From assembly GCA_029881035.1 (NCBI GenBank), contig JAOUNI010000002.1, positions 64,565 through 128,564 of the forward strand: a DNA stretch of 64,000 bases. The letters are read 5' to 3'. The notes under the pieces were generated by a model. The model was not told the DNA's origin, ran no database searches, and saw only the letters and a list, made by a program, of their open reading frames with translations. A program made the translations under genes and the position numbers. Below are positions 4,926 to 55,427 of this stretch, in pieces (the first letter of the stretch is position 1; the number at the start of each line of letters is the position of its first letter). The DNA comes from Gammaproteobacteria bacterium (GTDB taxonomy: Bacteria; Pseudomonadota; Gammaproteobacteria; SZUA-229).

Positions 4926-5450
4926 TTATAGAGTCTCTTGTTTCAACTTGAGGCGAAATATTTTTCCTATTGCCTCGATTATTTCCGGGCTATCCCACTC
5001 GTATGAACCACGCGCTTTTTGCAACACACGACCCTCGGCATCGACCAGAATAGTTAATGGAATAGTATTCGCACCCAGCATGTTTTCCAGCATCAGTTTG
5101 CTGTCAAGAAAGTTATCAAAGGTAATACCTGTTTGCTTAATGAAAGCCTCGGCTCTGTCGCTATAGTCATCTGTCGAAACCCCGATCACGTTGAACTCTT
5201 TGCCGTTATAACGCTTCGCCAGCCGCTCCAGCGAGCCCATCTCCGACCGACATGGACCACACCAGCTAGCCCAGACATTAATGAGCAATGGCTTGCCCTT
5301 AAAATCAGCAAATGTATTCGTCTTACCATTAAATCCACGCAACGTCGCCTCACGCAAAAAATCACCGACCTCAACTTCACCGGGCGTAGCCGCAGATGCA
5401 GCTGTAGGTAGCACTGATAACAGAATAAATATTAAGAGGATTATTCGCAT
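4926..5450 (-). CDS. TlpA/ResA-family periplasmic thiol:disulfide oxidoreductase
   Basis: Signal peptide plus the thioredoxin motif WASWCGPC. Confidence 0.8.
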   Translation of the reverse strand: MRIILLIFILLSVLPTAASAATPGEVEVGDFLREATLRGFNGKTNTFADFKGKPLLINVWASWCGPCRSEMGSLERLAKRYNGKEFNVIGVSTDDYSDRAEAFIKQTGITFDNFLDSKLMLENMLGANTIPLTILVDAEGRVLQKARGSYEWDSPEIIEAIGKIFRLKLKQETL

Positions 5451-5655
5451 TTAAAAAAACCATTTCGTTATTTATTTTAGGTGAACATATTAGCTTGATC
5501 TATATAGCGCCGCTACCAAAAAGTAGACATATATCAATGTTGTGGAGCTAAAACATTCACCAGAAAGAATCTAGATGTGCAATAACTGTGTACTTTTGTG
5601 AAAATAGCTTTTATTCTTTACCTGTCAACATTTTTATTAAAAAGGAGACACTAAA

Positions 5656-6564
5656 ATGAATAAAATTACTAAAGCATGGCTGCTTACCGGGATTGTAATT
5701 TTCTTGAATACTACCCCGGTTTTCGCAAAAGAGAGTCCCTGGCGATTACACCTGCCTTTCGAGAAGGCCGTTATCCATTACAATATCAACGGTTCACAGG
5801 AAGGAAATGAAACCCTGTACATACGGGATTTCGGCAACGAGAGAGTCAAAATCACCAAAAGCAAAGGCAAGATAATGTTCGTCACTATAATAACGGACAC
5901 CATCGAAATCACGACACATGACTCTATTGTAAATATCGACAAGGATAAAAGAACCGCCACCAGAATAACAAATCCACAAAGATTCATGCAGGAAGAAATA
6001 GAAAAACTTTCATCATCGGACCGTAAGGTCGTTATGAAGAATCTTGAAACAATTGGCATGAATATGGCGCTGCAGATGGGCGGCGAAGTCAAATTAAAAG
6101 CGGGAGAACACCTTGGCCATACCTGTGATCTAGTGACCATAATGGGAGCCACAAGTTGCCAAATGAGTGGCACACCGATCTTACTCAAGATGGATTCAAA
6201 TCTAATGGGAATAAAAACAAAAACTGTCGCAACAAAAATCGATAAAAACGCATCGATTCCCGCAGATATTTTCAAGTTACCTAAAGATATTAATATTGCG
6301 TATAACAAAGAATCCGATGACATGAACCACGCTATGGTTGCATCAATGATCGAATTAATGAAAGATCCTGATGCACCTAAAAAAATTGAAGAAGGTATAG
6401 CTCAGAACAAGATGGAAATGGAAGAAGAACAACAGCAGGAAACACAGGAGTTCGAAAATGTTATGGATGAAGATGCAAGAGAAAATAGTGACGAACCTGA
6501 TCAAAAGCAGATCGATGAAATGATGCAGAAAGGCATGAAAACCTTTAAGGGGTTATTTAACTGA
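5656..6564 (+). CDS. Hypothetical secreted protein with a highly acidic C-terminal tail
   Basis: 302 aa. Signal peptide (..TTPVFA), good RBS AAGGAGA, E/D/Q-rich C-terminal 60 aa. Confidence 0.6.
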   Translation: MNKITKAWLLTGIVIFLNTTPVFAKESPWRLHLPFEKAVIHYNINGSQEGNETLYIRDFGNERVKITKSKGKIMFVTIITDTIEITTHDSIVNIDKDKRTATRITNPQRFMQEEIEKLSSSDRKVVMKNLETIGMNMALQMGGEVKLKAGEHLGHTCDLVTIMGATSCQMSGTPILLKMDSNLMGIKTKTVATKIDKNASIPADIFKLPKDINIAYNKESDDMNHAMVASMIELMKDPDAPKKIEEGIAQNKMEMEEEQQQETQEFENVMDEDARENSDEPDQKQIDEMMQKGMKTFKGLFN

Positions 6565-6662
6565 ACCCAGGAAAAACAGGCATCCAGAGACAAACTTAAC
6601 GATCATTTCATGAAACATGCGTCTGATTAAAATAATCGTGATCAGATCATGGTACAGCTGTT

Positions 6663-6697
6663 CAAATTCGCTCCCAGCGAATTTAGGGGGGGCTTTT
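6663..6697 (+). terminator. Putative intrinsic terminator (AAATTCGCT-ccc-AGCGAATTT then G-run then CTTTTTT)
   Basis: 9-bp perfect stem with a 3-nt loop followed by a T-run, about 100 nt downstream of the 5656-6564 CDS. Confidence 0.4.
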
Positions 6698-6889
6698 TTG
6701 GCTGTAGAAAAAAGAGTGCTTACCCCTGGGTGCGAATACCCACTACTACCAAGATTAAGGCTTATTACTAAAATTAGTATTTGCACAAAAGCCCAAACAT
6801 GGATTCCATCCTTAGGTTCGTTAACGGTGCATCCATGCACCACTGCTCTCGCCTACACGGGAATGACGAGCGTTTTTTATTAAACAATA

Positions 6890-21919: not shown

Positions 21920-22561
21920 CTAATTTATTAGATCTGGATATAGCGCATGCGCCAATTGATCAAATTCTTCTGCACTTTTACTCTTCCCTGAAAGCTCAAA
22001 TATTGAAAGCCCTTCACTTAAGGTACGCCTAAAACTCGTTCTCTGACATAGCCTGTATGGAATTACCCTGAATTTTTCCAGCATTTTTAGTGCCTGTTCT
22101 GCCTCATCGGATTCCCTCACGGCATGATGCGTATCAGCCCTGTTTATAAATGCAACTAATTCTGGATGATTATTATCACCACATGCATCATTAATTATTT
22201 TCAAAAATCTCTGCGTCGCCCATACATCAGGCTGGCTCGGTTGCACTGGAACAATAACTCGGTGAGCAATGCTTATAGCTGCTTTCATCGCATCCATATT
22301 AGCCGCACCCACATCTACTAAAACATGACACGAATGATTATTTAATGTCCCACAAATATCATTACTATCTGCAACACTTACTAACAGCTCAGGCTCAATA
22401 TCATCTTCTCTCCTAACCAATGCAACATCATGCAATGTTTGTTGAGGGTCAAGATCATAGGCAACCACGACTTCACCTTTCATCTTCAGCCAGATAGCAA
22501 GATTGAATGCAACCGTACTTTTGCCTGATCCACCTTTAAGATTTGCGATGACTGTTATCAT
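21920..22561 (-). CDS. Orphan ParA/MinD-like P-loop ATPase. The track ORF extends to 22597; the likely start is MITVIANLKGG
   Basis: Deviant Walker A IANLKGGSGKST with the signature Lys; ParA-type Walker A' and Walker B; no parB or parS nearby. Confidence 0.8.
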   Translation of the reverse strand: MITVIANLKGGSGKSTVAFNLAIWLKMKGEVVVAYDLDPQQTLHDVALVRREDDIEPELLVSVADSNDICGTLNNHSCHVLVDVGAANMDAMKAAISIAHRVIVPVQPSQPDVWATQRFLKIINDACGDNNHPELVAFINRADTHHAVRESDEAEQALKMLEKFRVIPYRLCQRTSFRRTLSEGLSIFELSGKSKSAEEFDQLAHALYPDLIN

Positions 22562-22568
22562 TCTGTAC

Positions 22569-23333
22569 TCACCTGTTAGTGTATTCAGGGCGAACATCTG
22601 GCTGAGATACTATTTTTGCGTAGTCTCCGGGGACACTGAATAAATCATCTGGCTGTTTGGAGACCACGATATTTTTTAGCTCTCTAATATAACCACCTGG
22701 CAACTCTTCTTTTATGGCGATTTTCAGGCCCGGGTCATACCATTGGTAAGATACTGCACTTTTTCCATCTGGACGACTCAACGTTCGCTGCCATTTTTCG
22801 GTATTTCGTCCATTTATTTTTTCCTTTTGTAACATCTTTAACTCTGCCACCGAACCATCTGGAAAAAATTCTCTTATCGCAAGTTTTCTTTTTATATCCA
22901 TCCAGTGAAGAGTCCGTAATTTTCTTCCTCTATTTTCAGAGATGATTTGCCATTTTTCTGTATCGTGTCCGTCGATGTTTTCATTACCCAATTTCTCACA
23001 TATTGCGTTTGATATTTGATCACATGGCGTATCATTATTTTTCTTATTATTTTGCCTATCAAACACTTTCTCCACATATGATTTCAATGGGTTGTTAATA
23101 AGGACTGCCCTACCCTCTTGCGGATAAACAATTTCGACAATCACTTGTTCGTTAACTACAGACTCATTTCTAACCGCTTTTTCACTCACAAATAATTTGG
23201 TCTGTCTCATGTTCTGTTGTGGCGCACTAATCACTGCATCTGCTGAAAACTCTACAATTTTTGGCTCAGCATATGTATTGCCGGTTATAAACACCGAACA
23301 AGCTATAACCAGGATTTTTCTCAGAGCACCCAT
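22569..23333 (-). CDS. Hypothetical secreted protein
   Basis: 254 aa; signal peptide MGALRKILVIACSVFITGNTYA; overlaps or abuts the ParA-like gene. Confidence 0.6.
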   Translation of the reverse strand: MGALRKILVIACSVFITGNTYAEPKIVEFSADAVISAPQQNMRQTKLFVSEKAVRNESVVNEQVIVEIVYPQEGRAVLINNPLKSYVEKVFDRQNNKKNNDTPCDQISNAICEKLGNENIDGHDTEKWQIISENRGRKLRTLHWMDIKRKLAIREFFPDGSVAELKMLQKEKINGRNTEKWQRTLSRPDGKSAVSYQWYDPGLKIAIKEELPGGYIRELKNIVVSKQPDDLFSVPGDYAKIVSQPDVRPEYTNR

Positions 23334-23412: not shown

Positions 23413-23865
23413 CTACTGAGCAGGTGCTGGTGCAGGTGCTGCTTGAGGAGCATAACCAGGACCATAATAACCAGGACCGGGGCCGTAACCATAACCAGGA
23501 CCAGGGCCATAACCGTAGCCATTGTTATAACCGTTATAGCCGTTATAGTTATTTCGACCGTAGTAGTCACCAGCACCATTACCATAACCACTACCACGAG
23601 CATTTGAGTTGCCACTCATGTTGAAGCCAAAATTGCCATCGCCAAGGAAATCGCCCATACCATTGCCATTACCCCAACCATTGCCATTATTACCCCAGTT
23701 GTTATTGTTGTTGCCCCAACCATTGTTATTATTATTCCAGGGACCCCACCAGGCATTTGCTGTCATAGGCGTAGCCAGAGCAGCTGCTACCGCTGCAACA
23801 CACAGTACTTTTTTCACGTTTTTCATAATATTTCTCCCCTTCTTCTGAAGGCTATTAAAAGACAC
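23413..23865 (-). CDS. Secreted extremely low-complexity Gly/Asn/Trp/Tyr-rich protein
   Basis: 150 aa. Signal peptide ..ATPMTANA, then WWGPWNNNNNGWGNNNNNWGNNGNGWGNGNG...NYNGYNGYNNGYGYGPGPGYGYGPGPGYYGPGYAPQAAPAPAPAQ. It has the same orientation as its neighbours, and the alternative-frame ORFs lack signal peptides. Confidence 0.6.
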   Translation of the reverse strand: MSFNSLQKKGRNIMKNVKKVLCVAAVAAALATPMTANAWWGPWNNNNNGWGNNNNNWGNNGNGWGNGNGMGDFLGDGNFGFNMSGNSNARGSGYGNGAGDYYGRNNYNGYNGYNNGYGYGPGPGYGYGPGPGYYGPGYAPQAAPAPAPAQ

Positions 23866-23958: not shown

Positions 23959-24582
23959 TTACCAGAACCTTGGCCTGGATAATAAACCTGTGTACGGATA
24001 AGAACCGCCAGGATAACCGCCATAACCTAGTCCGTTCGAAATTAAACCCGGATAGATTGATGGTGTAATTAATGGATTGTGATGCATCGTTCCTGGATAA
24101 CCATAAGCACCGCCTAAAGGTAGCAGTGATCTTCCGTAAGCAGTGAATGGATCAGCCGATACAAAATTATTACGATATGAGGAATCATTCTGATGACTCC
24201 ATTGTTTAAATCGCTGATCATGAAGCTTCATATTGTTTTTATTGCTCGGTTTCCGATCTGGAATATTTCCCCATGGCCGTTGACCAGAAAACGTTTTTTT
24301 AGAGTAAGTAGATTTAACTGCTTTCCATGGATTTTTGGTCGTTACCGGTGAATAACGAACTTTATTATCTTCATTAAAAGAGCGACCACTTCCCCATTGC
24401 TTTTCCCCGACACTATTCCGAAAATCAGGGTCAACAGAAGGTGGAGAAAAGTCTGAAAAACTTGATTTTGATACAAAATCTTCCTTCCACTCTGTTGCGC
24501 TCACTGGCTGAAGATAAAGACCACTATTAACAAGCAGCAATATAAGAATTTTATTCAAATAACTATTGTCAGCTATATTCAT
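23959..24582 (-). CDS. Secreted protein with a Gly/Tyr/Pro-rich C-terminal domain
   Basis: 207 aa. Signal peptide; C-terminus ...LPLGGAYGYPGTMHHNPLITPSIYPGLISNGLGYGGYPGGSYPYTGLLSRPRFW. Confidence 0.55.
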   Translation of the reverse strand: MNIADNSYLNKILILLLVNSGLYLQPVSATEWKEDFVSKSSFSDFSPPSVDPDFRNSVGEKQWGSGRSFNEDNKVRYSPVTTKNPWKAVKSTYSKKTFSGQRPWGNIPDRKPSNKNNMKLHDQRFKQWSHQNDSSYRNNFVSADPFTAYGRSLLPLGGAYGYPGTMHHNPLITPSIYPGLISNGLGYGGYPGGSYPYTGLLSRPRFW

Positions 24583-24657: not shown

Positions 24658-25146
24658 CTAGTACCGTTGCCCCTGATACATTGGTTGCTGATAATATTCT
24701 GGCGGCACAGCACCAGGACCGTAAACCGGGCCACGTGCAGAAGGGAAAGGTTGCTGAAATCTATTATCTTGAACGCCGGGAGCACGACCTGAATAAGTAT
24801 TTGGCGCTGGTTGCATTTGATTATAATTCCATTGTGGCTGTTGATTTGGCCGATTCTGAGATTGCATATTTGATTGTTTCATTCGTTGCTCCATCTGAGC
24901 CTGGCGTTGTTTCACCCAATCTGGCACCTCACTGTTTAACTGGTTGGATTGTGCAGAGGGATGCCCATAATTTTTTCTCATATGCGAACAATTTTGAACG
25001 CTCTGATCTGAAGTATATTGATCAGTATCATCAACTGATTTATATGGGCCAGGAGGTGGCATCACATTCTCATAGCTTCCAGCAAAAACTGAATGATTTA
25101 TTGCCATTGTCATAGCAGTCATTAATACTAATATTGTTGTTTTCAT
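24658..25146 (-). CDS. Secreted Gln/Asn/Pro-rich low-complexity protein sharing the PxWVKQRQAQME motif with 19571-20434
   Basis: 162 aa. Signal peptide ..SVFAG; PDWVKQRQAQMEQRMKQSNMQSQNRPNQQPQWNYNQMQPAPN...; 24 bp downstream of the RND gene stop. Confidence 0.55.
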   Translation of the reverse strand: MKTTILVLMTAMTMAINHSVFAGSYENVMPPPGPYKSVDDTDQYTSDQSVQNCSHMRKNYGHPSAQSNQLNSEVPDWVKQRQAQMEQRMKQSNMQSQNRPNQQPQWNYNQMQPAPNTYSGRAPGVQDNRFQQPFPSARGPVYGPGAVPPEYYQQPMYQGQRY

Positions 25147-25170: not shown

Positions 25171-28100
25171 TTATTCTGTTTCCAATCCAGGATTAAGACG
25201 GATTCCTCGTCTTTTCTTCTTCGTTGCAATCTTTTTTTCACTTACGATAACTGTATTTTTTTTATCTTCTGATGACTCACTGATGGATGCGATTTTTTTC
25301 CCAGGTGCTGACTTTTTTTTCACCGCAGTCGCAGCTTTCTCAGCTGCTACTTTCTTCTGTGCTGCAGTCTTCTTTTTCACCACCGGCCTCGATACTTTGG
25401 CGTCACCTACTTTTTCCTGAACCACCTCATTGTTGACAGCCTGATTCTGGTCACTAGTTTGAGTTTGTGAGGAACTTTGATTCACATCTCCATCATTGCC
25501 TGAAACTACCGATGAAGAAACTGGGGCGGGCGTGGGATTACCTCCTGATGAGCCTGAGCCGCCACCATCTGGTGAACTCGGACCGGAACCACCTGAGTCA
25601 CTACTGAATCGTGCAAGCAAACTCTGTATACCCATGCGAACCATCATGACAATCATGCGGCCAATATAGAAAGCCCATGTCACCGCATTAATTAACTGCA
25701 TCCAGATTCTTAACCATAAAGGTAACTGATAAGCCGGAGCTTCAGGCTCACTTACTTTAACTTTAATAGCGGGATTTTCCATGCCTGCCAGCAAATAGAA
25801 CTGCTTGCTGACACTTATACAACCCAACGGAATCACTACCAGAGTTAACACCGTGGCGACACCCGCACCATATAACAGACTGACGGCCATGCCCTTGAAA
25901 ATCAAATCATCAAGAATCATATAGGCACCTGCCATCAACGTTAGCGCCGTGATCAGGATAGGACGCATACGTGCTTTACCTGCCAGCACCACTGCCTCCT
26001 TAATATCCACGCCATTGGCCACCTCATGCTTGACGAACTCAACCAGCAAAATGGAATTTCGCACCACGATCCCTGCCAGCGCGATAAAACCAATCATAGA
26101 TGTGGCAGTAAATTCCGCATTCGCAAACCAGTGCCCAGGAATAATCCCAATGAGCGTCAACGGGATAGGTGCCATAATCAAACCACCGAGAGTAAAATTC
26201 TTGAACTCCCAGACGATCAGTCCATAAATCAGCAACATGGCCGCCATAAATGCGCCGCCCATATCCCTGAATGTTTCATAGGTCACGGTCCATTCACCGC
26301 CCCACTCAAAACCGCTTTCGAAACTATCATCCGGCGGTCCTAACAAACCCATTGGCATGCCAGTCATGGTGACACCGTCAGGTGTCACATAATTTTCGAG
26401 AATATCTTCCACATCAAACATGCCATAAATTGGCGCACCAAGACGTCCTTGCATTTCACCCGTAACGTATTCAACATCACGCAAATCTTTGTGATAAACA
26501 AGCTGGTCCTGTTCTTCTTTGATAAAACGACCTAGCTCAGAAAGCGGCACAGTTTCACCATTAACACCAGTAATTGGCAAATTACCCAGGCGGTTAATTT
26601 GTGAACGCACTCCCATAGGCGCCTGAATCACAATATAAGTTGGTTCCAGTACTACCCCTTTTTTCACATCACCTAGTTTGTAGCCACCCATAACCATAGC
26701 CAGGTTACGATTTATCGCGTCAACAGAAATACCGCGTCGTACTGCTTTTTCAGTATCCACCTCAAAACGCCAGTAATCGTGCGGCGTCGCCATATAATTA
26801 TCAACGTCAACAATACCTTCAGCTTCCCTGAAAATTTCAGTCATATCGCGAGCAACCTGACGACGCGTCTCTGCATCAGGTCCATATATTTCAGCAACCA
26901 CTGTCTGTAATACAGGCGGGCCTGGCGGCATTTCAATAACCTGAATATCAGCGCCTAAACTGTCAGCCATATCTTTTATCAACTCACGTGCATTAACCGC
27001 AATTTCATGACTCGCGCGTTCTCGATCTTCCTTATCAAGCAGCATGACCTGGATGTCAGCTTGCCAAGGCTCCTGCCTTAAATAGTAATGGCGCACCATA
27101 CCATTGAAATTAAACGGAGAGGCCGTGCCTACATAGGTTTGAATTGATGTCACTTCTGGTAATTCACGAAGTTTTGCCGCGAGCTGCGTAGTCACATTAG
27201 CCGTAACTGGCATTGCTGTTCCGTCAGGCATATTGATCACAATATTAAACTCAGGCTTGTTATCAAAAGGCAACATCTTTACAGTAACTGCCTGGGTGTA
27301 AAACAATGAACAAGCAATAAATGTTGCCGCAATTAATAAAAACAGAAACATCAAACCCAATGCCCTGTTATTACATAATGGATTCATGCAAGGGTCATAA
27401 AATTTACCAATCCATGCTGTAATTTTTTCCTCTCGCCTTTCTGCCTTTTCCAGTGCGCCTAACTGTGGACGAACCCGCATTGCAAACCAGGGCACAAAAA
27501 TAAATGCTGCAAATAATGAAAGCATCATAGCGGCCGAACCTAGCACCGGGATGGGTCTCATGTAAGGCCCCATCAAACCACTAACAAAACCCATTGCCAA
27601 TAAAGCAGCGACAATAGCCAATGTTGCCAGGATGGTTGGATTGCCAACCTCTCGCACCGCATCAATAGCAATATTGGTGGTTGTCTTTCCTGCCTTTAAC
27701 CATCGCCTGAAAATATTTTCGACTACCACGGTGGCATCATCGACCAGAATACCGATGGTAAAGACCATGGCAAATAAACTCACACGGTCAATGGTGTAAT
27801 CAAGAAACCACGCCGACCACACCGTCATTAAAATGACCAGTGGTATGATAAAAATGACCACCGATGCAGCACGAAGTCCCAGGCCAATTAAACATAAAAT
27901 ACTGACAGCGACCGTGGCTTCAAATAATGCTATCAGTAACTCATTAACCTTATCGTTGGCTGTTTTCCCGTAATTACGCGTAATGCTAACCTGAACATTA
28001 TCAGGGATAAGATGACCTTTTAAGGATTCAAGTTTTTCCAGCAACTGATTTGCAACTGACACACCATTAGAACCAATTTTCTTTGCCACTGCGATAGTGA

Positions 28101-29052
28101 CTGCTGGTGAATCTATAGTCTCGGGAGTTGAACCATCATGTGCCAGCCCAGTTGAAAAAGCCACCATCTTGCTAGTTTCTTCAGGCGCCTGATAAACCCA
28201 GGCAATATCACGCACATAAACCGGTGAACCTTTTCTGATCGCCACAACAAGATTAGAAACATCTTGTGCGCTTTTTAAGAATGCGCCTGTATAAACGTGA
28301 AAGCTGTCATTATCTCCTTCCACATTACCCGCAGATTGTTCAGCGTTCGCTGTTTTAATTGTGTTGGCAACATCTTCTATGCTAATCCCAAAACCACTCA
28401 AACGTTCTGGAGAAACCTCAACACGTATTTGTTCTGCTCGTCCACCAACAACAAAACCTTTACCTGAATTTGGAACTTCCTCAAGGCGCTGTAGCACATC
28501 CAGTCCCAGGGTACGTAGTACAGAATCATCGATCCCCTGATCTTCTGACCATAAAGTGATAGTCACTACTGGCACATCATCAGTACCTACAGGTTTAACC
28601 AGAGGCATTGAAACGCCTGGAGGAATCTTATCCAGATTCGACTGCAATTTATCATGCACTTTGACAATCGATTCGCCAAAGTCTTCGCCCACTCTGAAAC
28701 GCGCTGTCACCATACCCTGACCACGCGCGCTGGCAGAGTAAACGTGACGCATACCAGGTATTTCACTGATCATGCGTTCTAGCGGATTAACCGCAAGACT
28801 GGCCACCTGTTCTGCCGAAGCACCGGGATACTGAAAAAAGATATCCACCATGGGCACGGAAATCTGTGGATCTTCCTGACGCGGAGTAAACAGCAGCCCC
28901 AGTATGCCAATACCCAAAAAGGCCAGCATTAATAGAGGGGTAACCGGTGAATTTATAAACTGACGGGCAATACGCCCGGCGATACCAAGATTAGCTTCGT
29001 CTAGCTGCAGATCATCATCCTGCAGGTTCTTTTCGTCTATTTCATTTGACAT
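25171..29052 (-). CDS. RND (AcrB/HAE1-like) efflux permease with a ~230-aa C-terminal low-complexity Gly/Ser then Lys/Ala-rich histone-H1-like tail
   Basis: 1293 aa. 12-TM RND architecture with two large periplasmic loops (core ~1060 aa). The tail ...SGGSGPSSPDGGGSGSSGG...KKKTAAQKKVAAEKAATAVKKKSAPGKK...KKKRRG has no counterpart in canonical AcrB/MexB. Confidence 0.9.
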   Translation of the reverse strand: MSNEIDEKNLQDDDLQLDEANLGIAGRIARQFINSPVTPLLMLAFLGIGILGLLFTPRQEDPQISVPMVDIFFQYPGASAEQVASLAVNPLERMISEIPGMRHVYSASARGQGMVTARFRVGEDFGESIVKVHDKLQSNLDKIPPGVSMPLVKPVGTDDVPVVTITLWSEDQGIDDSVLRTLGLDVLQRLEEVPNSGKGFVVGGRAEQIRVEVSPERLSGFGISIEDVANTIKTANAEQSAGNVEGDNDSFHVYTGAFLKSAQDVSNLVVAIRKGSPVYVRDIAWVYQAPEETSKMVAFSTGLAHDGSTPETIDSPAVTIAVAKKIGSNGVSVANQLLEKLESLKGHLIPDNVQVSITRNYGKTANDKVNELLIALFEATVAVSILCLIGLGLRAASVVIFIIPLVILMTVWSAWFLDYTIDRVSLFAMVFTIGILVDDATVVVENIFRRWLKAGKTTTNIAIDAVREVGNPTILATLAIVAALLAMGFVSGLMGPYMRPIPVLGSAAMMLSLFAAFIFVPWFAMRVRPQLGALEKAERREEKITAWIGKFYDPCMNPLCNNRALGLMFLFLLIAATFIACSLFYTQAVTVKMLPFDNKPEFNIVINMPDGTAMPVTANVTTQLAAKLRELPEVTSIQTYVGTASPFNFNGMVRHYYLRQEPWQADIQVMLLDKEDRERASHEIAVNARELIKDMADSLGADIQVIEMPPGPPVLQTVVAEIYGPDAETRRQVARDMTEIFREAEGIVDVDNYMATPHDYWRFEVDTEKAVRRGISVDAINRNLAMVMGGYKLGDVKKGVVLEPTYIVIQAPMGVRSQINRLGNLPITGVNGETVPLSELGRFIKEEQDQLVYHKDLRDVEYVTGEMQGRLGAPIYGMFDVEDILENYVTPDGVTMTGMPMGLLGPPDDSFESGFEWGGEWTVTYETFRDMGGAFMAAMLLIYGLIVWEFKNFTLGGLIMAPIPLTLIGIIPGHWFANAEFTATSMIGFIALAGIVVRNSILLVEFVKHEVANGVDIKEAVVLAGKARMRPILITALTLMAGAYMILDDLIFKGMAVSLLYGAGVATVLTLVVIPLGCISVSKQFYLLAGMENPAIKVKVSEPEAPAYQLPLWLRIWMQLINAVTWAFYIGRMIVMMVRMGIQSLLARFSSDSGGSGPSSPDGGGSGSSGGNPTPAPVSSSVVSGNDGDVNQSSSQTQTSDQNQAVNNEVVQEKVGDAKVSRPVVKKKTAAQKKVAAEKAATAVKKKSAPGKKIASISESSEDKKNTVIVSEKKIATKKKRRGIRLNPGLETE

Positions 29053-29098: not shown

Positions 29099-30415
29099 TT
29101 ATTTAGAGAAATCAGGCGTCCAGCCTGATCGAATACCCGGCGATGGTGAAGCAAAAATTTGCTCCCCAGGGCTAATACCAGATAATACAGCGACATTTTC
29201 ATTATCAACTTCATCACCCAGTCGTACTAGTCGCATCTCGGCACGACCCTCGTGATTAAGTACGAATACAGCTGGTAAACTGCCACGCCGAACAATGGCG
29301 GAGGAAGGAATAATTGGCATATCGGCAATAGGTGTGTTCACATCAGGGATCATTACTTCAGCATACATACCTGGACCACCCGGCACGCCCTCAGGTAAAT
29401 CAAATTTCACAACCACAGTGTGTCTCTGTGAATCCGCGACAGGAAAAATTTGCGCTACGCGCACATCAATGTAAGTATCACCCACGTCCAATTTTGCAGG
29501 CACGACCATATCTTCACTCAGTGCCGACACCAGTCTGGCAGGCACATCAACCTTGAGCTGCAGAAAACGGATATCCGCAAATTGCAATAAAGCCTGGCCA
29601 GGCTGAACCGTGTCGCCGACTTCTGCAACTTTCTTCACAATAACGCCTTCAAATGGCGAAATAGCCCGTGTATCACGTAAGCGCGCATCTATTTCATCAA
29701 TACGCGAACGTGCACCGTGAATTCCACTTTGCGCCTGATCGACGTGCGTACCCTGAGAGTACAGATCCACATCACGGACCACCCATGGATTCAAGCCGTT
29801 ATATGATGGATAACCGCCTGAGGATGGGCCGCCACCAAAACCCATAAATTTTTCAAACATGGAAGGGAAGTACCCCATGCTTGGTGCAGTTTGCTGCTGT
29901 TGCTGCTGCAAAGCCTGTGGCGCCCAGAACTCCCTGGAATATTGAGCTCGTGCATCCTGTAATGTTGATGACCTGCCATAAAGGTCAGCCATTGCCTGTT
30001 GCCGCTGCGCAAGCACATCGTCATCATCAATAGCGACCAGAATCTGGCCTTCGTCAAACCATTCACCTTCACTACCTGCAATAAACTCAACCCGTCCTGG
30101 AGTCTGAGCAGTTAAGGTCACTTCTCTATAAGGCTTAACAGTACCGCCCAATACTACATGTGCACCTGTTTTTGCATTGGTGACAGTGATAATGGATCCA
30201 TGCTGCTTACCACCACGCTGTACAGTCGGGTAGAAAACTTTGCCTGACGTATGCGCCGACTGATTACTGTTATCTGTCCGATAATAGGCTTTTTCGGCCT
30301 GCAACTGAAAAGATATTATTAATGATACTGCGAGCAATAATCGGCTTAATAAATAAGCACTATCTGCCGGCCGCGTAGTAAACCACTGGTTGTTACGCAT
30401 TACTGCTTTCCCCAC
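29099..30415 (-). CDS. RND efflux membrane fusion (periplasmic adaptor) protein with a Gln6/Gly/Tyr/Ser/Pro-rich insertion
   Basis: 438 aa. N-terminal anchor; biotinyl/lipoyl-like and beta-barrel MFP domains; ~45-aa insertion QQQQQQTAPSMGYFPSMFEKFMGFGGGPSSGGYPSYNGLNPW. Confidence 0.85.
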   Translation of the reverse strand: MGKAVMRNNQWFTTRPADSAYLLSRLLLAVSLIISFQLQAEKAYYRTDNSNQSAHTSGKVFYPTVQRGGKQHGSIITVTNAKTGAHVVLGGTVKPYREVTLTAQTPGRVEFIAGSEGEWFDEGQILVAIDDDDVLAQRQQAMADLYGRSSTLQDARAQYSREFWAPQALQQQQQQTAPSMGYFPSMFEKFMGFGGGPSSGGYPSYNGLNPWVVRDVDLYSQGTHVDQAQSGIHGARSRIDEIDARLRDTRAISPFEGVIVKKVAEVGDTVQPGQALLQFADIRFLQLKVDVPARLVSALSEDMVVPAKLDVGDTYIDVRVAQIFPVADSQRHTVVVKFDLPEGVPGGPGMYAEVMIPDVNTPIADMPIIPSSAIVRRGSLPAVFVLNHEGRAEMRLVRLGDEVDNENVAVLSGISPGEQIFASPSPGIRSGWTPDFSK

Positions 30416-30449: not shown

Positions 30450-30836
30450 CTAGATTTTTGCCATGACAGCAAAACTTTTGATGAAGGGTCCGGCCATACG
30501 AGGATCTTTAATCATAGCGCCATAATCTCCAACTAAAAATTTCAGCTTACCTGTGGTATAGGCCATACCTAACCCCATCATCCCCGGTGGACTCTTCACC
30601 CATTTACCCCAATGCTCATTGGATGCACGTAAGTCCCAGTTCAACGTCTCACCGTTATACTCACCAGCTGAAACCACATGACCGTTTTCAACAGTAATAA
30701 CACCTACAGGCTTTTCTTCACCTGTGAAGCCATAAGCAATTACAGAGTTAAAATTTATCTGTTTAAGTGCATCTGCCAATCCAGGTTCAGCATTCCAGGC
30801 ATTCTGAAACTTCTTCATCCAGTCTTCTTTAAACAT
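30450..30836 (-). CDS. SCP2 (sterol carrier protein 2)-like lipid-binding domain protein; first gene of the RND operon
   Basis: 128 aa, WMKKFQNAWNAEPGLADALK...GKLKF...AMAKI; SCP-2 sterol-transfer fold signature; 34 bp upstream of the MFP gene. Confidence 0.7.
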   Translation of the reverse strand: MFKEDWMKKFQNAWNAEPGLADALKQINFNSVIAYGFTGEEKPVGVITVENGHVVSAGEYNGETLNWDLRASNEHWGKWVKSPPGMMGLGMAYTTGKLKFLVGDYGAMIKDPRMAGPFIKSFAVMAKI

Positions 30837-30879
30837 TTTTTATTTCTCCAAAATAATTTAACGACCCATATCTGACATA

Positions 30880-30895
30880 GCAAGAGTTATGCCAA
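30880..30895 (-). promoter_or_regulatory. Sigma-54 (-24/-12) promoter TGGCAT-N5-TTGC on the - strand, upstream of the SCP2-MFP-RND operon
   Basis: The reverse complement of GCAAGAGTTATGCCAA is TTGGCATAACTCTTGC, matching the TGGCAC-N5-TTGCW consensus with GG/GC correctly spaced. It sits about 45 bp upstream of the SCP2 start, with a divergent sigma-54 activator gene. Confidence 0.55.
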
Positions 30896-30923
30896 CTCCC
30901 AACTCATTGATTTACATCAAACA

Positions 30924-31055
30924 ATTGTTGCTCATTGTTCCATCATGCAACAATACTTTTATTGACTAATGTCACTAAGTGGATGAATACATGTAAAAAC
31001 CAAGGATATATTGGGTGAAACATTGTTGCGCAACACCGCAATAATTGCAACACTG
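30924..31055. promoter_or_regulatory. Putative upstream activator sequences: inverted repeat ATTGTTGC-N15-GCAACAAT (30924-30954), perfect palindrome TGTTGCGCAACA (31024-31035) and a TTGCAACA half-site (31045-31052)
   Basis: Repeated TTGTTGC/GCAACAA dyads 30-170 bp upstream of the sigma-54 promoter, inside the divergent intergenic region with the EBP gene. Confidence 0.4.
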
Positions 31056-31094
31056 TGATTAGATAATAATTTTTCCCCTACTAAGGAACGTCTA

Positions 31095-32444
31095 ATGCAG
31101 CCCAGTGAACCCAACTTTGCCCTGTTACTGGAAAACATTGTTTCATTCATCGATGAAGGTGTCATAGTAACTGATAATCTAGGTAACGTTCTATACCATA
31201 ACCCAGCAGTATTTAAATTACTCGGCATTGAACCCAACAAACCGATCAATAAACTACACGACATAGGTAAGTTTAATTTACAGAAAGCTATCTTACGTGC
31301 CGCTATCGACGCGGGTGAAACCGATGCTGCCGGTAAACCCAGTGACAACTTTATTAGCTTCGAACAACAATTTCATCATGATGGCTGCAATCGACTGGTC
31401 GAAATTATTAGTCGCCTGATTACCAGCCCTGATCACAAAGAGAAAAACCGCCTCATACTGTTCAGAGATCGAACAGACGCACGGCATATGGAAGCCGTGC
31501 TCAATCCCATGGGCAAACAGATGAGCAGCCAGGATCCACGCATGCTGGAAATTATTGATCGCATCTATCAAATTGCCCCAACTAATGCTTTTATCCTGCT
31601 ACAAGGGGAGTCTGGCACAGGTAAAACACAATTGGGACGATTGATCCATACTCAAAGCAGTCGATCAAAAGAGGCATTTGTGGAAGTGAACTGTGCAGCT
31701 ATACCAGAAACCCTGATTGAATCTGAATTATTCGGCCATGTTAAGGGGGCATTTACCGGTGCCAGTAGAGGTCGCCCAGGAAGGTTTCAGAGCGCACACA
31801 AAGGCACATTATTTCTTGATGAAGTTGGAGAGATCCCCCTGCATCTACAGGCAAAACTATTACGAGCCATTCAGGATCAGGAGTTCGAAATGGTGGGCTC
31901 AGATAAGCCCGTACGCGTTGACGTACGTATTATAGCCGCCTCCAACAAAAATCTAAGACAGATGGTAGATAAGGGCAAGTTCCGCGCCGACCTATTTTAT
32001 AGACTGGCCGTTATCCCCATAACCATACCTTCACTTAAAGAAAGACCAGGCGATATTATATTATTATCCAAACACTTCTGCGCCCAGTTAGTGGCCAGAG
32101 GTTACCCTGCCAACATTACTTGTAGCGACGAAGCCACTCGTATGATGATGGATTACCCCTGGCCCGGGAACGTACGTGAGCTTGAAAATGCGGTAGAACA
32201 TGGTCTAATTTGTGCCATCGATGGCCAGGTAAGAACTGAAAGCCTGCCTCAGGATATACGTGAACATAGCCTTAAGCTGAACAAGCCGATTCATGACGCT
32301 GAAGACAATGCAATTCAACATGCCTTCGAAATAGAATCTACATTAAAACAGGTTAATGGCAATAAAGCCGAAGCGGCAAAGGTACTGGGCGTAAACCGCA
32401 CCACACTATGGCGGTGGATACAAAAATACGGCATTGAAATATAA
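31095..32444 (+). CDS. Sigma-54-dependent Fis-family transcriptional activator with an N-terminal PAS-like sensor domain
   Basis: 449 aa. AAA+ sigma-54 interaction domain (GESGTGKT, GAFTGA, ESELFGH), C-terminal HTH (RTTLWRWIQKYGI). Confidence 0.9.
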   Translation: MQPSEPNFALLLENIVSFIDEGVIVTDNLGNVLYHNPAVFKLLGIEPNKPINKLHDIGKFNLQKAILRAAIDAGETDAAGKPSDNFISFEQQFHHDGCNRLVEIISRLITSPDHKEKNRLILFRDRTDARHMEAVLNPMGKQMSSQDPRMLEIIDRIYQIAPTNAFILLQGESGTGKTQLGRLIHTQSSRSKEAFVEVNCAAIPETLIESELFGHVKGAFTGASRGRPGRFQSAHKGTLFLDEVGEIPLHLQAKLLRAIQDQEFEMVGSDKPVRVDVRIIAASNKNLRQMVDKGKFRADLFYRLAVIPITIPSLKERPGDIILLSKHFCAQLVARGYPANITCSDEATRMMMDYPWPGNVRELENAVEHGLICAIDGQVRTESLPQDIREHSLKLNKPIHDAEDNAIQHAFEIESTLKQVNGNKAEAAKVLGVNRTTLWRWIQKYGIEI

Positions 32445-51737: not shown

Positions 51738-52278
51738 AATCCGCTCAATTTCATATCACAGGATCATATTAACGCTGATGTTATTGCACGCTCCTGTGGG
51801 ACTTGCTACCAATAGTGAGATTGAAGAGAATATTCAAATTCAGGCGAATTACATGCAATTTGATATGGAAACAGGGAGTAGCATCTATGAAGGTGATGTC
51901 AAAATCAGTCAGGGAACAATCCAGCTACTTGGACAAAAAGTAACCATCCTACGACAACAGGATCAGATTCAGGAAATTAACGTTGATGGTCAACCTGCAC
52001 GATATAGCCAGGATGAAGATACCGAAAATAAAATTCATGCGACCAGCCAACACATGCAGTATCTGACCGATCAGCATCGACTAGTAATGACAGTAGATGC
52101 CCGTCTGGAACAACCCGACCATACTATAGAAAGTCAACGCATCGTCTACGATACCAAAAATAAAATCGTAATCGCTGGCAGTGATGATGAACATAAACCA
52201 TCAGGAGGACGGGTCAATATCACGCTGACACCGAAAAAAGACAATACGACCACTCCAGCCAACACAGAGAAACCATAG
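51721..52278 (+). CDS. lptA: LPS transport periplasmic protein LptA. The track ORF starts at 51676; the likely start is MFKSDK with a signal peptide
   Basis: Signal peptide ...LATNS; OstA-like beta-jellyroll; precedes lptB. Confidence 0.75.
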
Positions 52279-53003
52279 TGTCGATACTCCGTGCAAAAAG
52301 CCTGGTTAAAAGCTTTAAAACTAGAACTGTTGTCAATGATGTCTCAATTGAAATAAATAGCGGTGAGGTCGTTGGCTTGTTAGGACCCAATGGCGCAGGT
52401 AAAACCACCAGCTTTTATATGGTGGTCGGATTAGTGCCGACCGATAGCGGACAAATCTATCTAAACGAAAAAGACATCACCGACCTGCCGGTACATGCGC
52501 GGGCGCGCAAAGGCATTGGTTATCTACCACAGGAGGCATCCGTCTTCAGAAAATTAACCGTCGAAGACAACATTATGGCCATTCTGGAGCACAATCCGTC
52601 ACTCGATAAAAAAGCCCAATTGCAGCTACTGGAGGATCTTCTGGAAGATTTCCAGATCCAGCATATCCGAGAATCCACCGGGCTGAGCCTGTCAGGGGGT
52701 GAACGTCGACGTGTTGAAATTGCGCGTGCTCTGGCTTCTCAACCCTCTTTTATCCTACTCGATGAACCATTTGCCGGAGTTGACCCGATTTCAGTCATCG
52801 AAATACAGAAAATCATCCGACATTTGATTGAGCGCAATATTGGTGTACTCATTACCGACCATAATGTCCGCGAAACTTTGGGCATTTGCCAGCGGGCCTA
52901 CATTTTAAGTGATGGCAAAATTATTGCTCAGGGCAGCGCGGAGGAGATTTTAGCCAATCAACAAGTACGTGATGTATACCTTGGACGTGATTTTCAGCTA
53001 TAA
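52278..53003 (+). CDS. lptB: LPS export ABC transporter ATP-binding protein LptB (GTG start overlapping the lptA stop)
   Basis: Walker [10 protein letters not shown], signature [14 protein letters not shown]. Confidence 0.95.
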
Positions 53004-53124
53004 GACATGTATGAGCATCAAATAACAACAGTAACTACACTCAGCACCATGTCGACATTACAAATAATTCTGATTTTGTCAGATTTCCACTCCAAATCGT
53101 CAGTAGTGGGGGCCTGCCTATAAA

Positions 53125-54615
53125 ATGAAACCTTCACTTCAACTCAATATTGGCCAACATCTAACGATGACGCCACAGTTGCAGCAGGCCATACGTCTGT
53201 TACAACTTTCCACTCTCGATTTGCAGGCCGAAATTCAGCAGACTCTCGAAGAGAACCCAATGCTGGAGCTGGAAGAAGACAACATTTACCCCAGTGATAA
53301 CAGTGACAGTGCTATTGGCACAGAAATACAACAGGTCTCCGCTGATAGCGAGAACACCACTGGTGACACAGATGATTCTCATCTGGATATGGAAAGAAAC
53401 CAGGATATCCCAGATGAATTAGCCGTTGATACTGACTGGGGTGATATATACGATATCGCTCCCAGCAACACCAGCAGCTCAACCGGTGACGGCGGCAATG
53501 ACTACCTTGAGAACCAGTCTTCCGGGGATGAAAACCTTCAAGACCATCTACTCTGGCAACTGCAAAATAGCCCCACCAGTGAAACCGATCTATTAATCGG
53601 TACCTCCATCATTGACGCCATTAATGAAGATGGTTATCTCACTGAATCCGTTGAAGACATCTATCAGAGTCTGGTCGATGAGCTCGACATTGAGCTTGAT
53701 GAAGTTGAAGCAATGCTGCATCGTATCCAGCGTTTTGACCCACTCGGTGTAGGCGCACGTGATCTACGTGAATGCCTGTTATTGCAGCTGGAACAATTTG
53801 CCCCCGACACCCCCGAACTGGCTGATGTCAAAATGCTGATCGAAAACTATCTTGATCTGATTGGTGCTCATGATTATGCCCGACTACAACGTAAAACTCG
53901 TCGTAGTGAAGAAGAACTACATGTACTGATCAGTTTCATCCAGACGCTCAACCCCAAACCGGGTTCTATCATCAGCAGCAGCACTACCCACTACATAGCT
54001 CCTGATATTTATGTACAGAAAATCAACGGTCGCTGGCGTGTTGAACTCAACCCGGAAACAGCCCCAAAAATCCGCGTCAACCAGATTTATGCCGATCACC
54101 TGAAAGCTGCTGGCCGTGGTGACAACAATTCACAGCTCAAAAATAGCCTGCAGGAAGCGCGCTGGTTTATCAAAAGCCTGCAAAGCCGAAATGAAACGCT
54201 CATGCGTGTTGGTAAAGCCATCGTTGAACGCCAACGTCTGTTTCTGGAATATGGCGAGGAAGGCATGAAACCAATGATATTACGTGACATCGCCGAAGAA
54301 CTGGAGATGCACGAATCAACAATATCGCGTGTGACCACACAAAAATACATGCACACTCCTCGAGGAGTGTTCGAATTTAAGTTCTTTTTCTCAAGTCGGG
54401 TTACCACATCGGATGGAGGCGAATGTTCCGCAACAGCTATCCGCTCCATGATGAAAAAACTTATTGAGAATGAGAATCCACAAAAGCCCCTGAGCGACAA
54501 CAAGATTTCTGCCTTTCTAATCAAAGAAGGTATTAATGTTGCACGTCGAACTGTGGCAAAATACCGGGAATCGATGATGATTCCTCCTTCAAATGAGAGA
54601 AAGCGTCTTGCTTAA
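53125..54615 (+). CDS. rpoN: RNA polymerase sigma-54 factor
   Basis: MKPSLQLNIGQHLTMTPQLQQAIRLLQLSTLDL; C-terminal RpoN box ARRTVAKYRE. Confidence 0.95.
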   Translation: MKPSLQLNIGQHLTMTPQLQQAIRLLQLSTLDLQAEIQQTLEENPMLELEEDNIYPSDNSDSAIGTEIQQVSADSENTTGDTDDSHLDMERNQDIPDELAVDTDWGDIYDIAPSNTSSSTGDGGNDYLENQSSGDENLQDHLLWQLQNSPTSETDLLIGTSIIDAINEDGYLTESVEDIYQSLVDELDIELDEVEAMLHRIQRFDPLGVGARDLRECLLLQLEQFAPDTPELADVKMLIENYLDLIGAHDYARLQRKTRRSEEELHVLISFIQTLNPKPGSIISSSTTHYIAPDIYVQKINGRWRVELNPETAPKIRVNQIYADHLKAAGRGDNNSQLKNSLQEARWFIKSLQSRNETLMRVGKAIVERQRLFLEYGEEGMKPMILRDIAEELEMHESTISRVTTQKYMHTPRGVFEFKFFFSSRVTTSDGGECSATAIRSMMKKLIENENPQKPLSDNKISAFLIKEGINVARRTVAKYRESMMIPPSNERKRLA

Positions 54616-54633
54616 ACCTACTGGAGCATTACT

Positions 54634-54957
54634 ATGCAAATTGAACTGACCGGCCACCACATTGAAATCACCGACTCTCTACGCAATTATGTCACTGAAA
54701 AAATGGAAAAACTCGAGCGCCACTTTGATAAAGTTAGTAACACTCATGTCATCCTGAGCGTTGAAAAAAATGTACAAAAAGCTGAAGCCACTGTTCATAT
54801 GAGTGGTCATGATATTTTCGCCGAGGCTAATGAACCCGACATGTATGCCTCCATTGATGCACTAGTTGACAAACTCGACCGACAGGTCAAAAAACACAAG
54901 GAAAAAATCACTAACCACCTGCATCATAAACACGTTGAAGCACCTATTGAAGACTAA
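54634..54957 (+). CDS. hpf: Ribosome hibernation promoting factor
   Basis: MQIELTGHHIEITDSLRNYV..., 107 aa. Confidence 0.9.
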   Translation: MQIELTGHHIEITDSLRNYVTEKMEKLERHFDKVSNTHVILSVEKNVQKAEATVHMSGHDIFAEANEPDMYASIDALVDKLDRQVKKHKEKITNHLHHKHVEAPIED

Positions 54958-55427
54958 TGAACTTAAAAGATCTTGTTAGCCCTGACTCCGTCATCTGCAA
55001 CGCTGACGTTGTCAGCAAAAAGAGAGCCCTTGAATTACTGGCTGAGTTACTGGCCACTCAAACTGATGCAGATAAATCATTTGATATATTCCAGCTTTTA
55101 ACTGAAAGAGAGAAACTGGGCTCGACCTCGCTGGGGCATGGTATTGCCCTGCCCCATGCGAGAACAGACTTATGCAAACAGGCTATTGGTGTTTTCATAC
55201 GCACAAAAAATGGTATTGATTTTGACAGCCCTGACCATCAACCGACAGATTTGCTATTTGCCCTGATGGTGCCAGAACATTACACGGATGAACACCTCAA
55301 TATTCTTGCCGGACTAGCAGGCATGTTTAACGATGAAAAATTTTGCCAGAATCTACGCACCGCTGATAGCAATGCAGAGCTTTATCACCGACTGACCAGT
55401 TGGGACGCAATATCACAGGCCTCGTAA
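54957..55427 (+). CDS. ptsN: PTS IIA-like nitrogen regulatory protein (EIIA-Ntr)
   Basis: GHGIALPHAR active-site His motif. Confidence 0.85.
   Translation: MNLKDLVSPDSVICNADVVSKKRALELLAELLATQTDADKSFDIFQLLTEREKLGSTSLGHGIALPHARTDLCKQAIGVFIRTKNGIDFDSPDHQPTDLLFALMVPEHYTDEHLNILAGLAGMFNDEKFCQNLRTADSNAELYHRLTSWDAISQAS

Follow-up and report, generated by a model that had tools for sequence, protein, structure and literature searches.

The 258-bp intergenic region at positions 30837-31094 of a 64,000-nt stretch of contig JAOUNI010000002.1, from a member of the Gammaproteobacteria, lies between two divergent genes: a minus-strand gene (30450-30836) for a 128-aa protein with a predicted SCP2 fold, and a plus-strand gene (31095-32444) for a 449-aa bacterial enhancer-binding protein (bEBP). 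All coordinates are those of this 64,000-nt stretch, referred to below as the window. Our analysis indicates that the region is likely a sigma-54 promoter region, dependent on an enhancer, for the operon of the SCP2-fold gene and the genes for a membrane fusion protein (MFP) and a resistance-nodulation-division (RND) permease, with the divergent bEBP acting on GTTGC sites. It probably also serves the genes for small secreted proteins found downstream. The evidence consists of the elements themselves, which are conserved and fixed in their geometry, occur together with the bEBP gene and decay where it was lost, and of the presence of rpoN.

A -24/-12 element conserved with a divergent activator gene

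On the minus strand, TTGGCATAACTCTTGC is found at 30895-30880, with 43 nt separating it from the ATG of the SCP2-fold gene (30836), in agreement with a sequence-only reading of this stretch that had placed a sigma-54 consensus about 45 bp before that start. Within the element TTGGCATAACTCTTGCT (30879-30895), TGGCATAACTCTTGCT (30894-30879) fits TGGCAY-N5-TTGCW exactly, and its GG (30893-30892) and GC (30881-30880) are exactly 10 bp apart, as in sigma-54 promoters. Transcription from such promoters usually starts 11-13 nt downstream of the -12 GC, and from this distance a start is predicted at ~30868 (30866-30870, minus strand). Positions below are numbered from this predicted start, 12 nt downstream of the -12 C, which places the ATG at +33. 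A ribosome-binding site, GGAGAA, could be read from the sequence 7 nt before the ATG (30844-30849, minus strand), its purine-rich block being conserved in an alignment (A2).

The exact consensus occurs once in the window, with 0.34 matches expected from shuffled windows, and because 31 of 100 shuffled windows hold at least one, the match taken alone is not significant and only suggestive. Matches to -24/-12 with one mismatch were present in the whole window at chance frequency only. We therefore read the element against loci of other genomes (L-numbers), namely 80 obtained in a genome scan with the 128-aa gene plus four bEBP orthologue loci fetched independently. The 80 loci are nearly all from magnetotactic bacteria and sulfur-oxidizing Gammaproteobacteria, the latter including Thiodiazotropha, Sedimenticola, Thioalkalivibrio, Thiomargarita, Ectothiorhodospiraceae and Chromatiaceae. 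A bEBP orthologue (48-88% identity) is encoded in 13 of them, always divergent and adjacent. Strong matches to TGGCAY-N5-TTGCW were found at all 13 loci with the bEBP gene compared to 2 of the 67 without it (L036 and L078; Fisher p = 3e-13), and in 11 of the 13 the match is 36-47 nt before the ATG. The four additional orthologues (60-68% identity; one from an endosymbiont of Galathealinum) are likewise all divergent to a gene for a ~130-aa protein followed by MFP and RND genes, and all four loci have the same intergenic elements, L082 with GTGC at -12; the other flank of the bEBP gene carries different genes in each. The ATG is at +26 to +37 from the predicted start in 14 of the 17 bEBP-linked loci of other genomes, as it is in the window. 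When 12 bEBP-linked intergenic regions were aligned (mean column identity 57%), the TGGCA and TGC columns were invariant, and all 20 invariant columns fell within five blocks, which are the predicted elements. Leaders from promoter to start codon, usually ~30 nt, are longer in L011 (6504-6995; ~266 nt), L015 (6608-6992; ~114 nt) and L082 (3684-4000; ~110 nt), and these could reflect an insertion or an extra regulatory leader.

Four close relatives with 77-85% identity in the SCP2-fold protein (L003, L005, L006 and L007) have no bEBP gene, and sspB is directly upstream of their operon. The upstream regions compared (L003, 6731-7000; L005, 4749-5018; L006, 3016-3285; L007, 6731-7000) are still homologous to the intergenic region of the window, and both the -24/-12 element and the proximal GTTGC half-site described below are destroyed in all four. 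L003 reads TTGGTGCGGCTTTTAA at -24/-12, L006 is without the correct GG/GC spacing, and in L005 and L007 the element is unrecognisable at the expected position. An AAATCAA box is kept in L003, L005 and L006. In a neighbour-joining tree of the RND permease, L003, L005 and L007 are nested in the bEBP-carrying clade and are not monophyletic, which suggests two or more losses of the bEBP gene (the tree has no support values, which weakens the point, and L006 could not be placed). The locus L036 (6600-7000), with no bEBP gene within 7 kb, keeps the promoter together with GTTGC at -84, -162 and -173 and a box at -114, which suggests a regulator acting in trans from a gene presumably elsewhere in the genome. 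The decay after loss and the L036 pattern together link promoter and proximal site in function with the bEBP. Altogether, co-occurrence, invariant columns and decay after loss support the sigma-54 promoter that had been proposed from the sequence.

In the relatives that lack the bEBP gene, sspB is in the same orientation as the operon, and read-through from sspAB may now drive it. At Sedimenticola and Thiodiazotropha loci (L057, L064 and L040, ~5000-6700), the position divergent from the SCP2-fold gene is taken not by the bEBP gene but by one that encodes a dynamin-like GTPase of ~505-530 aa.

Sigma-54 itself is encoded in the window. The product of rpoN (53125-54615, plus strand) has Sigma54_AID, CBD and DBD domains (6.6e-17 to 1.2e-66) and the RpoN box ARRTVAKYR. 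The gene belongs to a plus-strand block (52278-55427) in the usual order, with an ABC-ATPase gene in the LptB position, rpoN, hpf and ptsN, and the organism therefore has sigma-54. A Rfam scan of the intergenic region gave sub-threshold hits only, the best being YenS (21.5 bits; gathering score, 80).

GTTGC half-sites, IHF-like boxes and alternative explanations

Upstream of the promoter, the sequence-only reading had reported ATTGTTGC-N15-GCAACAAT and a perfect 12-mer palindrome, TGTTGCGCAACA, as plausible bEBP sites. Both are present, at 30924-30954 and 31024-31035 respectively. It is the half-site they share, rather than either palindrome alone, that exceeds chance: TGTTGC/GCAACA occurs five times in the 258 bp compared to 0.24 in dinucleotide shuffles, none of 5000 of which reached five, and the intergenic region is the sole spot in 64 kb with at least three GTTGC/GCAAC inside 60 bp. 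Over the whole window TTGTTGC is at chance frequency (17 observed, 16.5 expected). Across loci, the mean number of GTTGC copies in 300 bp is 4.7 beside the bEBP gene and 1.1 where that gene is missing.

The arms of the N15 dyad differ in their conservation. The arm at 30946-30953 (ATTGTTGC on the minus strand, GCAACAAT on the plus strand; centre -81) is at a conserved position and corresponds to the proximal half-site, which, among the 17 other loci scored, was found between -79 and -84 in 12, at -93 in L018, L019 and L081, at -106 in L015, and in inverted orientation in L071 and L083, at -69 and -71. The other arm (30924-30931, plus-strand ATTGTTGC, centre -61) is missing at this position in the closest relatives, L001, L002 and L004, and in most other loci, and is specific to the genome of the window. 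Of the dyad, a single arm is thus a conserved element.

The 12-mer palindrome, whose half-site centres are at -164 and -159, is also conserved in position, and its repeats are linked to the bEBP gene, but as part of a cluster of three half-sites and not as a single palindrome. The third, the plus-strand GCAACAC at 31047-31053 (centre -181), is 42 nt before the bEBP ATG and had been missed, as had the two conserved boxes described below. GTTGC plus GCAAC was found at -164/-159 or -165/-160 in L001, L002, L004, L008, L011, L041, L083 and L084, and the remaining loci have the same half-site in other arrangements between -143 and -183. A half-site at -180 to -183 is shared by L001, L002, L004, L008, L013, L041, L071, L083 and L084. 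The distal cluster has 3-6 half-sites across loci, in varying orientations; neither a 10-bp lattice nor a single dyad rule fits the spacings (5, 17, 22; 10, 10; 7, 3 and others). The repeats at -81, -159/-164 and -181, ~80 bp or more upstream, conserved with the bEBP and enriched only beside its gene, have the features of upstream activating sequences. No further GTTGC cluster and no further copy of the palindrome that might indicate a second regulon member was found in the 64-kb window.

Two further conserved blocks resemble sites for integration host factor (IHF). Box 1, AATCAATGAGTTG (30900-30912, minus strand, centre -38), is an exact match to WATCAANNNNTTR with invariant AAA.CA and T columns, and of the 17 other loci scored, 16 have its centre at -38 or -39, the exception being L015 at -51 (L082 could not be scored). 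Box 2, ATTCATCCACTTA (30976-30988, minus strand, centre -114), has invariant TC and TA columns and differs from the IHF consensus by 1-2 mismatches in the window, the match being exact in L041. By pattern scan, 11 loci have it between -113 and -115, three have it at -122 or -123, and L015 has it at -140, and the same scan finds none in L038 and L071. An WATCAANNNNTTR match is thus located between the enhancer and the promoter, as in IHF-assisted promoters, and both boxes are putative IHF sites that would bend the DNA toward the promoter. Taken together, the elements at -38, -81, -114, -159/-164 and -181 keep their positions to ~1 bp in many loci with otherwise diverged intergenic sequence.

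Several observations weigh against this architecture or parts of it. The boxes may not bind IHF at all: box 1 could be UP-like or sigma-54-contact DNA, and box 2 the -10 or spacer of a sigma-70 promoter of the bEBP gene on the other strand. Box 1 lies directly against the -24 element and ends 5 nt from the TGGCA motif, near the footprint of the polymerase; in box 2 the best-conserved bases are TA (plus strand, in CTAAGT), compatible with a -10 element, and this box might instead belong to the promoter of the bEBP gene itself; the exact consensus is present in some loci only; and no IHF/HU gene signature was found in the 64-kb window, which carries little weight at that window size. On the other hand, box 1 fits the IHF consensus exactly, here as in many loci, a convincing -35 partner for box 2 was not found, and both boxes are placed between the activator sites and their target, as in the IHF-assisted sigma-54 promoters Pu (XylR), nifH (NifA), pspA (PspF) and norV (NorR). 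We consider a role other than IHF binding somewhat unlikely.

For the half-sites, the points of concern are their arrangement and their persistence. The distal half-sites differ between loci in number, orientation and spacing, and therefore do not define a recognition unit; the half-site centres in the 12-mer palindrome are 5-6 bp apart, tight for a helix-turn-helix dimer. Relics of the distal cluster outlast the bEBP gene (GTTGCaattattacaatGTTGCGTAACA is kept in L006 and GTTGCGCAAC in L007), which another binding factor could also explain. Furthermore, the bEBP-carrying loci are phylogenetically related, and the co-occurrence is therefore partly shared ancestry. One could accordingly accept the sigma-54 promoter and suppose that the GTTGC repeats are bound by some other factor, such as a repressor or nucleoid protein, or are only the operator at which the bEBP represses its own gene, with activation proceeding from another site or from solution. 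Such an account would suit the location of the distal cluster 42-71 bp from the bEBP ATG, where the promoter of that gene is expected, as well as the variable half-site arrangement and the survival of distal relics in L005, L006 and L007. It is nevertheless quite unlikely, given that the proximal half-site at ~-81 is far from the bEBP start, keeps its spacing to -24 and decays together with it upon loss of the bEBP gene, that the repeats track the bEBP gene across loci, and that L036 keeps promoter and repeats without an adjacent bEBP gene, which fits one functional unit.

It is very improbable that both the -24/-12 match and the palindromes arose by chance in AT-rich intergenic DNA and that the operon is driven from a sigma-70 promoter: an exact -24/-12 match does turn up in 31% of shuffled windows, an 8-bp inverted repeat (spacer up to 20 nt) and a perfect 12-mer palindrome each in ~10% of shuffles of the intergenic region, a further point against the palindromes, and the relatives without the bEBP presumably express the operon without sigma-54, but the core is invariant in 17 diverged loci, its spacing to the start codon is fixed in most of them, it is strictly associated with the bEBP gene and decays once that gene is lost, and a simple scan gives no minus-strand sigma-70-like match inside the intergenic region.

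The activator and its proposed mode of action

The divergent gene had been read as encoding a PAS-containing bEBP, and this assignment holds. By Pfam, the domain order of the 449-aa protein is PAS, AAA+ (with GAFTGA) and HTH_8, with matches to Sigma54_activat (PF00158, 3.7e-68), the AAA lid (PF25601) and HTH_8 (PF02954, 2e-9). The PAS assignment is marginal in the protein itself (PAS_8, 23.5 bits against a cutoff of 21.8; PAS fold, 21.3 against 22.6), and precomputed PAS matches exist for many of its orthologues. The motifs that mark the bEBP class, GAFTGA (nt 31746) and Walker A and B, show conservation among 12 orthologues. The recognition region of the HTH, NRTTLWRWIQKY, hardly varies between orthologues, and hence fits a shared DNA motif.

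No NCBIfam equivalog scored over its cutoff, the best being PrdR at 344.5 bits against 795, with NorR, NifA, RtcR, AtoC, NtrC, ZraR, PspF, TyrR and others also below theirs. Assignment as NorR (330.8 bits, cutoff 476) or as LuxO (252 bits, cutoff 800) was thus rejected. There are at least 120 orthologues at 59% identity or more, none given a specific name in the sources consulted, and full-text literature searches returned nothing specific on the regulator or the operon.

From the elements and their geometry we infer the following course of events. RNA polymerase with sigma-54 would occupy the -24/-12 element (30893-30880) as a closed complex. The divergent PAS-AAA+-HTH activator would bind the GTTGC half-sites, proximally at ~-81 and distally at -159, -164 and -181, with an extra site at -61 in the genome of the window. 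Bending at the IHF-like boxes (~-38 and ~-114) would let the activator oligomer reach the polymerase, and a signal sensed by the PAS domain would release the ATPase, upon which the promoter opens. The distal cluster, 42-71 bp upstream of the bEBP start codon, would have a second role: since it ends 42 nt before that codon, negative autoregulation of the bEBP gene is likely. Negative autoregulation is known for NorR, PspF and NtrC. Two plus-strand candidates for the bEBP gene's own promoter were picked by eye, TTGACT (30962), whose -10 is poor, and GATAAT (31062), which has no -35, and were discarded as neither convincing nor conserved.

The probable target operon and relation to known systems

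The 128-aa protein has no Pfam or NCBIfam match. Its AlphaFold model (pLDDT 93) aligns by Foldseek with a solved SCP2 structure, 2cx7 (TM 0.79), so that the SCP2 label given to it from the sequence appears to hold at the level of the fold. The family numbers 2484 database homologues, and the protein has 52 invariant residues and ~70% identity across orders. The MFP gene (29099-30415) and the RND permease gene (25171-29052), both on the minus strand and identified by Pfam and NCBIfam, follow at gaps of 34 and 46 nt. The order SCP2-fold, MFP, RND is conserved in most of the 80 loci, and was found in at least 568 genomes, almost all of them from sulfur oxidizers or magnetotactic bacteria. The permease has a C-terminal tail of ~200 aa (residues ~1090-1293) rich in K, S and G; its alignments extend to the last residues even in the distant L030, L040, L055 and L071, and the end of the tail may be conserved.

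The RND gene is followed on the same strand by three genes (23413-23865, 23959-24582 and 24658-25146) whose products are small, secreted and of low complexity, with a high content of G, N, Y, P and Q. Their order behind the RND gene is unchanged in close relatives, and they may thus be further members of the sigma-54 operon. For the 150-aa protein among them, 13 of 15 database homologues match PF17228 (Sulphur globule protein), its own Pfam match being below cutoff. At the tail of the same-strand run, a gene for a ParA/MinD-like ATPase overlaps the end of a DUF4412 gene (21920-22597 and 22569-23333, minus strand). DUF4412 is also encoded after RND in several distant loci, including L030, L035, L046, L049, L055 and L063.

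In regulatory logic, the region is ordinary and of textbook type, combining a sigma-54 promoter with an enhancer upstream of it and with IHF-type bends. By analogy, the closest known system appears to be norR-norVW of E. coli, in which the activator is also divergent, short inverted-repeat half-sites are in the shared region and an IHF-type box precedes -24/-12. That system likewise combines sigma-54, three activator sites and IHF with a one-component sensor without a receiver domain, and the same sites autoregulate the activator, as is probable here. In contrast to NorR, the sensor here is PAS and not GAF with non-haem iron, the sites are GTTGC-type and not GT-N7-AC, and the target is an SCP2-fold/MFP/RND operon and not nitric oxide detoxification. 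XylR/Pu and DmpR/Po share an enhancer ~150-185 bp upstream, an intervening IHF-type box and rigid distances, but have V4R/XylR_N sensors and other repeats, whereas the promoter region studied here has the additional -81 half-site and a second IHF-like box.

The half-site itself recalls those of CbrB (TGTTAC-N14-GTAACA) and LuxO (TTGCA-N3-TGCAA), with TGTTGC compared to TGTTAC and GTTGCA compared to TTGCA, a likeness that serves as a lead only. CbrB and LuxO are response regulators with receiver domains and other regulons, and the half-site spacing here is different and variable. The GTTGC-type site and the rigid promoter geometry occur in none of the compared systems.

An ecological analogue is FisR, a sulfide/persulfide-responsive Fis-family sigma-54 activator of Cupriavidus and Acinetobacter that is divergent from a sulfur-related operon with a predicted sigma-54 promoter (PMC7315123). 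The likeness lies in the divergent sigma-54 activator and in the host lineages, which here are sulfur oxidizers, but the target operon has no sqr or pdo gene. Moreover, orthologues have S, N, G or D in place of C98, the sole cysteine of the sensor domain, which argues against FisR-like thiol sensing in this domain. A loose parallel, by description, is the H2S-induced Dsui_3440-3443 of Azospira (an unknown protein, pump, SQR and MFP).

One may conceive of the PAS-bEBP/sigma-54 switch as the dedicated regulator of a sulfur-handling apparatus composed of an SCP2-fold carrier with S8- or polysulfane-like cargo, an RND pump and envelope proteins of sulfur globules, with the PAS domain sensing a sulfur or redox signal. 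We regard this as unlikely on present indications, and a hydrophobic sulfur cargo for the SCP2-fold protein is speculation. If true, however, the switch would be the first candidate for a point at which the formation of periplasmic sulfur globules is controlled in transcription.

Loss of the promoter along with the activator gene in some lineages provides unusually clean comparative support for the assignment. The interest of the system lies mainly in the genes probably under its control, which encode a protein of SCP2 fold, an RND pump and proteins resembling those of sulfur globules, and most organisms that carry the SCP2-fold/RND operon are uncultured. If confirmed, the region would provide a defined promoter, operator set and regulator with which to probe an operon conserved in sulfur-oxidizing and magnetotactic bacteria.

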